Shown one piece after another: positions 1,951 through 31,873 of a stretch of DNA of 64,000 bases (positions are counted from its first letter, which is position 1; every line of letters starts with the position of its first letter). This DNA is from Escherichia coli (GTDB taxonomy: Bacteria > Pseudomonadota > Gammaproteobacteria > Enterobacterales > Enterobacteriaceae): NCBI RefSeq assembly GCF_003018235.1, contig NZ_CP027437.1; one strand, given 5' to 3'. The translations under genes and the position numbers were made by a program. The notes below the pieces were generated by a model, which saw only the letters and a program-made list of their open reading frames with translations, made no database searches and had not been told where the DNA came from.

Positions 1951-3259
<1,309 letters not shown>

Positions 3260-13826: not shown

Positions 13827-14117
13827 TCACTCATCCAGCCGTTTAGTCGCGTCTTCATAAACGGCTGAGTTCTCTCTCTTACCAATAGCTATCACCAACA
13901 CGAGCAACTCTTTATCGTTAACCTGATAAACCAGGCGATATCCCTGTGTGCGCAGCTTAATTTTGTAGCAGTCCGGTAAATCCCGCAGTTTAGCCGATGG
14001 ATTGCGCGGCCTTTTCAGCACATCCTCAAGCTTTTTTTTAAATTGTTCCCGGACTGTCACGCCCAGTTTTTGCCACTCTTTCAGCGCCCGCGGATCAAAC
14101 GCCAGCTCATAGTTCAT
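13827..14117 (-). CDS. RelE/ParE-family mRNA interferase toxin
   Basis: 96-aa product from ATG 14117 (MNYELAFDPRALKEWQKLG...CYKIKLRTQGYRLVYQV...IGKRE); about 60% identical by eye to K-12 RelE as recalled; overlaps the antitoxin stop by 11 nt. Confidence 0.8.
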   Translation of the reverse strand: MNYELAFDPRALKEWQKLGVTVREQFKKKLEDVLKRPRNPSAKLRDLPDCYKIKLRTQGYRLVYQVNDKELLVLVIAIGKRENSAVYEDATKRLDE

Positions 14118-14349
14118 CCAGTCGGACCTTAATGGCCTCTTGTGGGTTGGCCAGTCGTTCCCTGACAGTGCGTAACAAGGCTTCTTCACTATCACTGACA
14201 GTGAGCGTTTTTACCGGCATTCGTCCATTTTCCGCAACGTACTGAAACAGCAGTCGCACTGCTTCAGTAGGCGTGATATTTAATTTTTCCAGCACCGCAT
14301 AAGCCTCATTTTTCAGTTTGTCATCCAGGCGGACGTTAAGTGTGGCCAT
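14107..14349 (-). CDS. RelB/DinJ-family antitoxin
   Basis: 80-aa ORF MATLNVRLDDKLKNEAYAVLEKLNITPTEAVRLL...; strong resemblance to K-12 RelB as recalled; RBS GGAGG upstream. Confidence 0.8.
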   Translation of the reverse strand: MATLNVRLDDKLKNEAYAVLEKLNITPTEAVRLLFQYVAENGRMPVKTLTVSDSEEALLRTVRERLANPQEAIKVRLDEL

Positions 14350-24252: not shown

Positions 24253-24561
24253 AGGGTTGTCCTCGTCGGGGTAATTATTATTGGTGAAAAGATGTTCGCG
24301 AAAAAACTATAGACAATTCGTTATGTAACGGATTGCGTTACATCACACTTCAAAAAAGTAAATAAAACGTTAATCACAAGTTTGTAATCGCTTTCATCTC
24401 ACTATGAAAAATGCGGCTACGGTTATGGATTTTCCTGCTCTTTAAACCATCTTAAAACTGGCTAAAAAGGAAAATGAAGAAGAAAACAAGCGAAGACATT
24501 CGGCGCGAGTTGGCTATAATACTCGGCACTTGTTTGCCACATATTTTTAAAGGAAACAGAC

Positions 24562-25092
24562 ATGAGCTTACTCAACGTCCCTGCGGGTAAAGATCTGCCG
24601 GAAGACATCTACGTTGTTATTGAGATCCCGGCTAACGCAGATCCGATCAAATACGAAATCGACAAAGAGAGCGGCGCACTGTTCGTTGACCGCTTCATGT
24701 CCACCGCGATGTTCTATCCGTGCAACTACGGTTACATCAACCACACCCTGTCTCTGGACGGTGACCCGGTTGACGTACTGGTCCCGACTCCGTACCCGCT
24801 GCAGCCGGGTTCTGTGATCCGTTGCCGTCCGGTTGGCGTTCTGAAAATGACCGACGAAGCCGGTGAAGATGCGAAACTGGTTGCGGTTCCGCACAGCAAG
24901 CTGAGCAAAGAATACGATCACATTAAAGACGTTAACGATCTGCCTGAACTGCTGAAAGCACAGATCGCTCACTTCTTCGAGCACTACAAAGACCTCGAAA
25001 AAGGCAAGTGGGTGAAAGTTGAAGGCTGGGAAAACGCAGAAGCCGCTAAAGCTGAAATCGTTGCCTCCTTCGAGCGCGCAAAGAATAAATAA
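24562..25092 (+). CDS. ppa: inorganic pyrophosphatase
   Basis: 176-aa ORF; family I pyrophosphatase sequence. Confidence 0.95.
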
Positions 25093-25170
25093 GTTCTTCT
25101 AGCGTAATAACCCTGAACGCCGGGCTTCGGTTAGTAGGGGTTTTTTATGCCCGCGATAAATAAACACACC

Positions 25171-25521
25171 TTATTCCACCACCGCCTGCAAACGTAATAA
25201 CGCCTCTTCCACCACCTCACCCGCAGCCAGACCAATACGCTTTGCCAGCCGGGCGCGTAGATCCATCATCCGCACCTGATTCACCAGCACCACGCCGTGC
25301 ACATCGCCTTCTTCGCAATGTAAAGGAACGCTAAATCCGGCATAACGGGCAAAATTTCCGCCCTGCGTAATGGGGGCCACCAGCGTCATTCCCAGTTGAT
25401 TAAAGGCTTGAACGGAGAGCACAAGCGCAGGTCGACCAGCACCTTGCTGTTCATGGCCGCTTGCTGGATCAAAGCCAACCAGCACAATGTCTCCCCGTTC
25501 AAATTCACTTTTCTTTACCAT
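25171..25521 (-). CDS. chpB: MazF-family endoribonuclease toxin ChpB
   Basis: 116-aa ORF with PemK/MazF-like sequence, overlapping the upstream antitoxin by 7 nt. Confidence 0.85.
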   Translation of the reverse strand: MVKKSEFERGDIVLVGFDPASGHEQQGAGRPALVLSVQAFNQLGMTLVAPITQGGNFARYAGFSVPLHCEEGDVHGVVLVNQVRMMDLRARLAKRIGLAAGEVVEEALLRLQAVVE

Positions 25522-25766
25522 ATTTCGTCACCCGCAGGGGTGGATTTACCCCAGACATCCTGCTCGCTAAGTTCCGTGGCGTTCATGTCACACTGTGCCA
25601 GCAGTTCATCAAGCGAGTAGCGCCTGGAGATGGGTGTCAGAATCAGTTGATTGTTGCTCACTTGCGCCTCCACGCTCTGCCCCGGCCGTAAGTTAAGTTC
25701 TTTCATCACAACATTAGGAATGACCATACCTGAACTATTCCCCCATCTTTTTATGGTAATACGCAT
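25515..25766 (-). CDS. chpS: antitoxin ChpS (AbrB/MazE-like)
   Basis: 83-aa product from MRITIKRWGNSSGMVIP; start could be 2 codons upstream at 25772. Confidence 0.8.
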   Translation of the reverse strand: MRITIKRWGNSSGMVIPNVVMKELNLRPGQSVEAQVSNNQLILTPISRRYSLDELLAQCDMNATELSEQDVWGKSTPAGDEIW

Positions 25767-25977
25767 CTGCACCTCCTTAAGTTATACAAAGTATAACTCA
25801 CGGTGCTACAGGAAACGTTTTACCCCTGCGCATTTGTGAACGCCAGCAGAGTTTTTTATGCGTTAACAGATATGGAAAGCGGCTCGGAGAGAAAAGCAAA
25901 AGGTGAGGGAATTACAAAACAGAATGCGAGTCGTCTCGCAAAAAACAACGCCACCCGAAGGTGGCGTATGCATATGG

Positions 25978-26319
25978 TTACTTATCCCTGTCTAACCAGT
26001 CGCCGCTTTCAATTAGCTTTAATCCATCGACGGGTCGTTGATAAACGTACATCCATGCACTCCCGTACGGCGTCTGAATCAACTGGCGCGCGTATTCACC
26101 GCCCCTGGTGCGCAAGGCATCAAGTTCGGCCAGCGTGGCGTTGTCAATACGATAAACTTCACCGTGTACTGTTCCGTTCCCCGGAACTGCGCCTGGATAG
26201 TGGCCCAGGCTATACAACTGGTAGTTATCGATACTGAAATCGCCCAGTAACTGGGCATTGGTCATCCAGTGACTGTTGCCTTGTTTGTGGCGTAAACTGC
26301 CGTAGACAAATATTCGCAT
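25978..26319 (-). CDS. ytfP: gamma-glutamylcyclotransferase-family protein
   Basis: 113-aa ORF; AIG2-like YGSL motif. Confidence 0.8.
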   Translation of the reverse strand: MRIFVYGSLRHKQGNSHWMTNAQLLGDFSIDNYQLYSLGHYPGAVPGNGTVHGEVYRIDNATLAELDALRTRGGEYARQLIQTPYGSAWMYVYQRPVDGLKLIESGDWLDRDK

Positions 26320-26321
26320 TG

Positions 26322-31873
<5,552 letters not shown>

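Follow-up and report, generated by a model that had tools for sequence, protein, structure and literature searches.

Genetic organization of the locus

The locus lies in a 64,000-nucleotide stretch of Escherichia coli DNA, referred to below as the window. It consists of two overlapping genes, chpS and chpB, in the chromosomal slot between ppa and ytfP, convergent with ppa (Table 1). The spacers measure 211 nt between ytfP and chpS and 78 nt between chpB and ppa, and the values published for K-12 are 211 and 79 nt (PMC5120126). [quoted passage not shown] In the overlap, ATGGTAA, the chpB ATG is set within the TGG-TAA that ends chpS; this architecture implies that translation of the two genes would be coupled.

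Table 1. Features of the chpSB locus and of related sites. Positions are those of the window unless stated otherwise.
Feature	Position	Strand	Remarks
RelE/RelB-type pair	13827-14349	minus	Between nrdG and cybC
ppa	24562-25092	plus	Flank of chpSB
chpB	25171..25521	minus	116-aa ORF, ATG start; MazF/PemK-family endoribonuclease toxin; intact
chpS/chpB overlap	25515..25521	minus	7 nt, ATGGTAA
chpS	25515..25766	minus	83-aa MazE/AbrB-type antitoxin; intact
Imperfect 21-nt inverted repeat	25767..25811		Repeat search; candidate operator for ChpS or ChpS-ChpB
chpS Shine-Dalgarno AAGGAGG	25772..25778	minus	Read from the sequence
Perfect palindrome core GTTATAC-AAA-GTATAAC	25781-25797		Inside the 25767..25811 repeat
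TATACT, -10-like hexamer	25790-25795	minus	Beneath the palindrome core
Perfect CRP-S core palindrome TGCGA-N6-TCGCA	25925..25940		In the ytfP-chpS spacer, 159 nt 5' of the chpS ATG
ytfP	25978-26319	minus	Flank of chpSB
chpB remnant	L002:1556-1712 (E. coli S43)		About 160 nt; compared with window 25157-25815

The list of open reading frames gives the chpS frame as 25515..25772, 85 aa from a GTG at 25772. Translation almost certainly begins instead at the ATG at 25766 and yields 83 aa, because the Shine-Dalgarno sequence lies 5 nt 5' of this ATG and overlaps the GTG, because the 83-position NCBIfam ChpS model covers residues 3-85 of the GTG-started ORF, and because chpS in RefSeq is 252 nt long. 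The original prediction had proposed an antitoxin of 83-85 aa and a toxin of 116 aa, overlapping by 7 nt and sited between ppa and ytfP. The overlap, the toxin length and both flanks were found as described; for the antitoxin the lower length stands and the 85-aa form is set aside.

Identity of the gene pair

Family searches assigned both products to the MazEF/PemIK type, as had been predicted. ChpB matched Pfam PF02452 (PemK_toxin) at E=3.7e-25, with 88.7 bits against a gathering threshold of 23.1 and an alignment over positions 1-108 of 109. ChpS matched PF04014 (MazE_antitoxin) at E=1.6e-11, with 44.4 bits against 24.7, over residues 7-51 of the 85-aa ORF. The NCBIfam equivalogs were more specific. 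The ChpB model NF007320 scored 226.8 bits (cut-off 129), with residues 1-116 on model positions 1-116, and the ChpS model NF008463 scored 192.7 bits (cut-off 101) over model positions 1-83. Scored with the MazF equivalog, ChpB reached 62.7 bits where 120 are required, and ChpS reached 34.9 of the 113 required by the MazE equivalog. Both values fall well short, so the pair consists of the chpB-type paralogues and not of mazEF.

A megablast search against 5426 complete E. coli genomes found DNA 100% identical across 801 nt in strain 2021CK-01784, whose two genes are called chpB (WP_000239581.1) and chpS (WP_001223213.1) in RefSeq. The RefSeq annotation agreed in all full-length genomes sampled. 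The exact ChpB and ChpS protein alleles were each present on at least 1000 public contigs, and about 540 genomes were at least 99% identical to the window chpSB at the DNA level. The exact sequences are common natural alleles.

ChpS aligned end to end, including the C-terminal W, with the MazE chains of PDB entries 1mvf and 1ub4 (E about 7e-07). The protein thus keeps the N-terminal swapped-hairpin DNA-binding domain of the AbrB/MazE kind and the acidic C-terminal toxin-binding tail, and its calculated pI is 4.93. Neither protein matched a defence-system family at E<=0.001 in a scan with PADLOC-DB v2.

With both equivalogs above cut-off and the K-12 identities given below, the feature can be named with very high confidence as the intact chromosomal type II toxin-antitoxin operon chpS-chpB (chpBI-chpBK) of Escherichia coli. 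Since it is chpSB itself, the module is already known; it is undamaged and ordinary. ChpS and ChpB of K-12 were reportedly described in 1993 by Masuda and colleagues, and the biochemistry of ChpB is said to have followed in 2005 from Zhang and colleagues. On its own the finding matters little, the module being long known and the allele a common natural one. The value of the check is that it confirms identity and integrity, and sets the antitoxin at 83 aa.

Comparison with K-12 and with related toxins

The operons of the window and of K-12 are alike in protein lengths (83 and 116 aa), in the 7-nt overlap, in the ppa-ytfP slot, and in the palindrome and Shine-Dalgarno sequence of the promoter region. 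The gene order ytfQ-ppa-chpB-chpS-ytfP-tamB is shared with a K-12-lineage strain. ChpB is identical to the K-12-lineage protein at 114 of 116 residues (98%), the window carrying the differences H89R and D101G, and ChpS at 79 of 83 (95%), with A12S, I19V, Q27R and A64T. The prediction that the pair is known from K-12 is borne out by orthologues at these identities in the same slot. The substitutions are ordinary allelic differences, both alleles being widespread. ChpS S12, V19, R27 and T64 and ChpB G101 are specific to the lineage of the window. At ChpB residue 89 the window shares its arginine with four other Escherichia lineages, so that the histidine of K-12 is the departure. At residue 101 the window has glycine, and K-12 and all four of these lineages have aspartate.

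The calculated pI of ChpB is 5.90 in the window and 5.51 in K-12, and through R89 and G101 the window protein is about two charge units less acidic. This difference is possibly relevant, because the weak toxicity of ChpB, which inhibits translation more mildly than MazF, has been ascribed to its acidic pI (PMC5408214).

MazE/MazF (ChpAI/ChpAK) of E. coli and chpSB share the domains PF04014 and PF02452, the order of antitoxin and then toxin, and the catalytic Arg/Thr pair. By the equivalog scores, however, MazE/MazF is a paralogue and not an orthologue. Their specificities also differ, with ACA for MazF and ACY for ChpB, the weaker toxin; the specificity given for Kid is UAH / UUACU (comparison in PMC5408214). 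Kis/Kid are the PemI/PemK proteins of plasmids R1 and R100 and are plasmid-borne, unlike the chromosomal chpSB.

Integrity and catalytic residues

The chpB and chpS frames are open over their full length, with no frameshift and no stop. The PDB contained no ChpB structure. The nearest chain was Kid/PemK, 1m1f (E=6.3e-21), and several MazF proteins came next. The 1m1f chain aligned with ChpB across 107 residues, with the motifs GHEQQG and GGNFAR in common, and Kid H17 corresponds to ChpB H23. In a HMMER alignment with E. coli MazF (3nfc_A), ChpB R30 and T52 aligned with MazF R29 and T52. The conserved catalytic arginine of the beta1-beta2 loop and the threonine (R29/T52 in MazF-ec, R25/T48 in MazF-bs) are present in ChpB; among MazF homologues these two residues show high conservation and are essential (PMC10893535). 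Decay of the module, named beforehand as the finding that would count against the prediction, was looked for as a frameshift or a loss of conserved residues. The frames were intact and R30/T52 and H23 were kept.

One candidate for decay was considered and rejected. Kid R73 and D75, reportedly proposed by Kamphuis and colleagues in 2006 as the catalytic acid and base, are replaced in ChpB by L79 and N81, and K-12 ChpB has the same two residues. Judged from the alignment, L79/N81 is a trait of the ChpB lineage rather than decay, and because these residues replace Kid R73/D75, ChpB is a relative of Kid and not a Kid-type enzyme.

Regulatory DNA and proposed mode of action

The inverted repeat upstream of chpS contains a perfect palindromic core that covers the -10-like hexamer. 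The core was identical in K-12, E. whittamii, Escherichia sp. E1V33 and Escherichia sp. MOD1-EC7003 and had one change in the divergent 'E. coli' E69. By analogy with other MazE-type antitoxins, the palindrome is probably both operator and -10 region, where ChpS would repress its own operon. A scan with the sigma-70 consensus called no promoter on the minus strand, and no convincing -35 box was seen by eye. We infer the position of the chpS promoter from TATACT and the palindrome only, the -35 being poor. The Shine-Dalgarno sequence AAGGAGG was kept in K-12 and in three of the four other Escherichia lineages; in E. whittamii it reads GAGGAGG. The 116 nt upstream of chpS (25767-25882) were almost invariant across Escherichia lineages, while the coding dS was 0.18-0.42. 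Such near-invariance suggests a regulatory constraint that extends beyond the palindrome.

An Rfam scan of positions 24400-26500 at E<=1 returned no RNA family, and hence no known sRNA or riboswitch is placed in the intergenic regions. When the 83 nt that follow chpB on the minus strand were folded, nothing resembling a terminator appeared (z = 0.67), and the ppa terminator hairpin probably serves the plus strand only.

In K-12, ChpS is published to bind and neutralise ChpB. According to the review PMC5408214, which cites Zhang et al. 2005, K-12 ChpB (ChpBK) cleaves single-stranded RNA at ACY (Y = U, A or G), on either side of the A, and a 2',3'-cyclic phosphate remains at the product end. Its action is independent of the ribosome (PMC2814082). 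For the operon in the window, one mRNA would yield ChpS and ChpB by translational coupling via ATGGTAA. ChpS, alone or with ChpB, would repress transcription at GTTATAC-N3-GTATAAC over the -10 region and start site. When the labile ChpS is degraded or no longer synthesised, free ChpB would transiently slow translation. The chpSB mRNA was not depleted in ACY sites, with 25 against 24.4 +/- 4.2 in shuffled sequences.

chpSB in other Escherichia

To locate the same site in other Escherichia, representative genomes were searched for the 3' end of ppa by means of a degenerate pattern. An intact chpSB between ppa and ytfP was found in E. whittamii, Escherichia sp. E1V33, Escherichia sp. MOD1-EC7003 and E69. 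These four loci showed 89-93.5% nucleotide identity to the window. In Nei-Gojobori comparisons with the four lineages (dS 0.18-0.42), dN/dS was 0.08-0.17 for both genes, which indicates that chpS and chpB are under purifying selection across Escherichia species.

Polymorphism of the ppa-ytfP site

Full-length chpSB DNA was present in 3097 of the 5426 complete E. coli genomes (57%), a figure that measures DNA coverage and is not proof of intact ORFs in every copy. The original prediction that the module is known from K-12 and not novel holds, with the qualification that it is not universal in E. coli.

A short allele replaces chpSB in 2321/5426 genomes. It is not an empty site and contains a decayed remnant of chpB. 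In this remnant about 160 nt match, at 72-77% identity, the N-terminal ~42 codons of chpB, with a local alignment score of 53 against 10.2 +/- 1.2 in shuffled sequences. Two frameshifts and stop codons are present, and an internal deletion fuses about codon 48 with the final two codons and the stop; chpS and the promoter are lost from the remnant alleles. Identical junctions were seen in all five remnant alleles compared, which came from different backgrounds and included that of the B2 strain ATCC 25922; the alleles therefore go back to one decay event.

The same remnant was observed in E. albertii NBRC 107761, with 89% identity across 377 nt. This divergence between E. coli and E. albertii fits the local synonymous divergence (ppa dS 0.19), and set against ppa dS the identity of the remnant gave no sign of selective conservation or of recent transfer. 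In B2-type strains such as ATCC 25922 (L004:301-968) the remnant is followed by esiB, encoding a secretory IgA-binding protein, inserted before ytfP. The variant with remnant and esiB was counted in 185/5426 genomes. A locus with three states, chpBS, esiB or neither, has been described for 47 genomes (PMC3735183); the passage of that paper on the locus terms the third state 'absent', with no mention of a remnant there.

The ytfP-proximal flank (window 25816-25977) occurs as two diverged haplotypes of about 85-95% identity. In strain 2000-3039, chpSB is joined to the right flank otherwise seen with the remnant, and this mixture shows recombination within the intergenic region in at least one strain.

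A candidate CRP-S site

The CRP-S core palindrome in the ytfP-chpS spacer was the sole perfect match in the 64-kb window; 0.13 were expected, and at least one occurred in 13 of 100 shuffled sequences. A terminator scan also scored the palindrome as a terminator-like hairpin after ytfP. Overexpression of sxy upregulates chpSB according to a statement in the review PMC11951105, which cites Sinha et al. 2009; Cameron and Redfield 2006 make no mention of chpS, ytfP or ppa. No mismatch to the core was seen in the window, K-12 or Escherichia sp. E1V33, and a single one was seen in remnant-type flanks and in each of three further lineages with chpSB. A perfect core does not cleanly track the presence of chpSB, as strain 2000-3039 with its remnant-type flank illustrates. 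Induction of chpSB by Sxy, as published, may act through this site. The link rests on the review statement and the motif match and, because conservation is mixed, is offered as a lead.

Evaluation of alternative explanations

A negligible probability can be given to the view that both ORFs are open by chance or were read on the wrong strand. Antisense ORFs of 74-76 aa do run across the same DNA on the plus strand. Strong family matches were nevertheless obtained for the minus-strand products only, RefSeq agrees in the sampled full-length genomes, and the substitutions show purifying selection. A module inactivated by point substitutions in toxin or antitoxin is somewhat less far-fetched and still very improbable. 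It would draw on the two ChpB and four ChpS substitutions relative to K-12, and on G101, where K-12 and the four other Escherichia lineages have D. Against it stand the open frames and the retained R30, T52 and H23, equivalog scores that are full length and far above cut-off, and the finding that R89 is the state of the four other lineages. The frequency of the exact alleles on public contigs, and of closely matching chpSB DNA among complete genomes, argues in the same direction, and an inactive antitoxin beside an active toxin would be lethal. The intact chpS-chpB operon remains the preferred identification.

A different objection disputes the role of chpSB and not its identity. The operon could be intact and yet a dispensable passenger, selfish or near-neutral, acting at most as an anti-addiction device against plasmid pemIK/kis-kid and not as a stress device. 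We regard this as a possibility to be taken seriously, though not the likelier one. Of the complete E. coli genomes, 43% lack the module and have the decayed remnant instead; the locus is published as having three states, chpBS, esiB or neither (PMC3735183); and among solved structures ChpB comes closest to a plasmid toxin, Kid/PemK (E=6e-21). No fitness gain has been attributed to chpB, and a physiological benefit is disputed (PMC2654758). The low dN/dS and the near-invariant 116-nt upstream region, on the other hand, show that selection keeps both genes functional wherever the operon is retained, although addiction itself can yield such a signal in toxin-antitoxin pairs. Statistical links of chpB/chpS are also published, one to healthcare-associated bacteraemia isolates (PMC6096937), the other to commensals of phylogroup B1 (PMC5422975), and both may simply reflect phylogeny.

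The intact and decayed alleles both appear to be as old as the Escherichia species or to have moved between them. Intact copies, kept under purifying selection, occur in E. coli, E. whittamii and further Escherichia lineages, and the remnant in about 43% of E. coli and in E. albertii. On this basis the ppa-ytfP site could tentatively be read as a very old cross-species polymorphism of presence and decay, maintained through balancing selection or through recurrent replacement by recombination, with wiring into the Sxy/CRP-S competence regulon through the CRP-S site as a further possibility; we consider this reading rather unlikely as it stands. The shared remnant beside intact operons at one fixed site offers a natural paired comparison, of possible interest for the study of how chromosomal toxin-antitoxin modules come, stay and go.

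A second toxin-antitoxin pair in the window

The original prediction placed two type II modules within 12 kb, and family matches show that the RelE/RelB-type pair is real. Its toxin, of about 96 aa from an internal ATG, belongs to the ParE/RelE superfamily (1.3e-14), and its antitoxin of 80 aa matches RelB (6.1e-16). In the DNA-identical strain 2021CK-01784 the two genes are annotated as RelE family and RelB/DinJ family. Nothing was found that links chpSB and this pair functionally. The K-12-lineage genomes sampled matched only the nrdG flank of the pair. It was full length in only 390 of the 5426 complete E. coli genomes (7%), and for this reason the layout with two modules within about 11 kb is a feature of a minority lineage.
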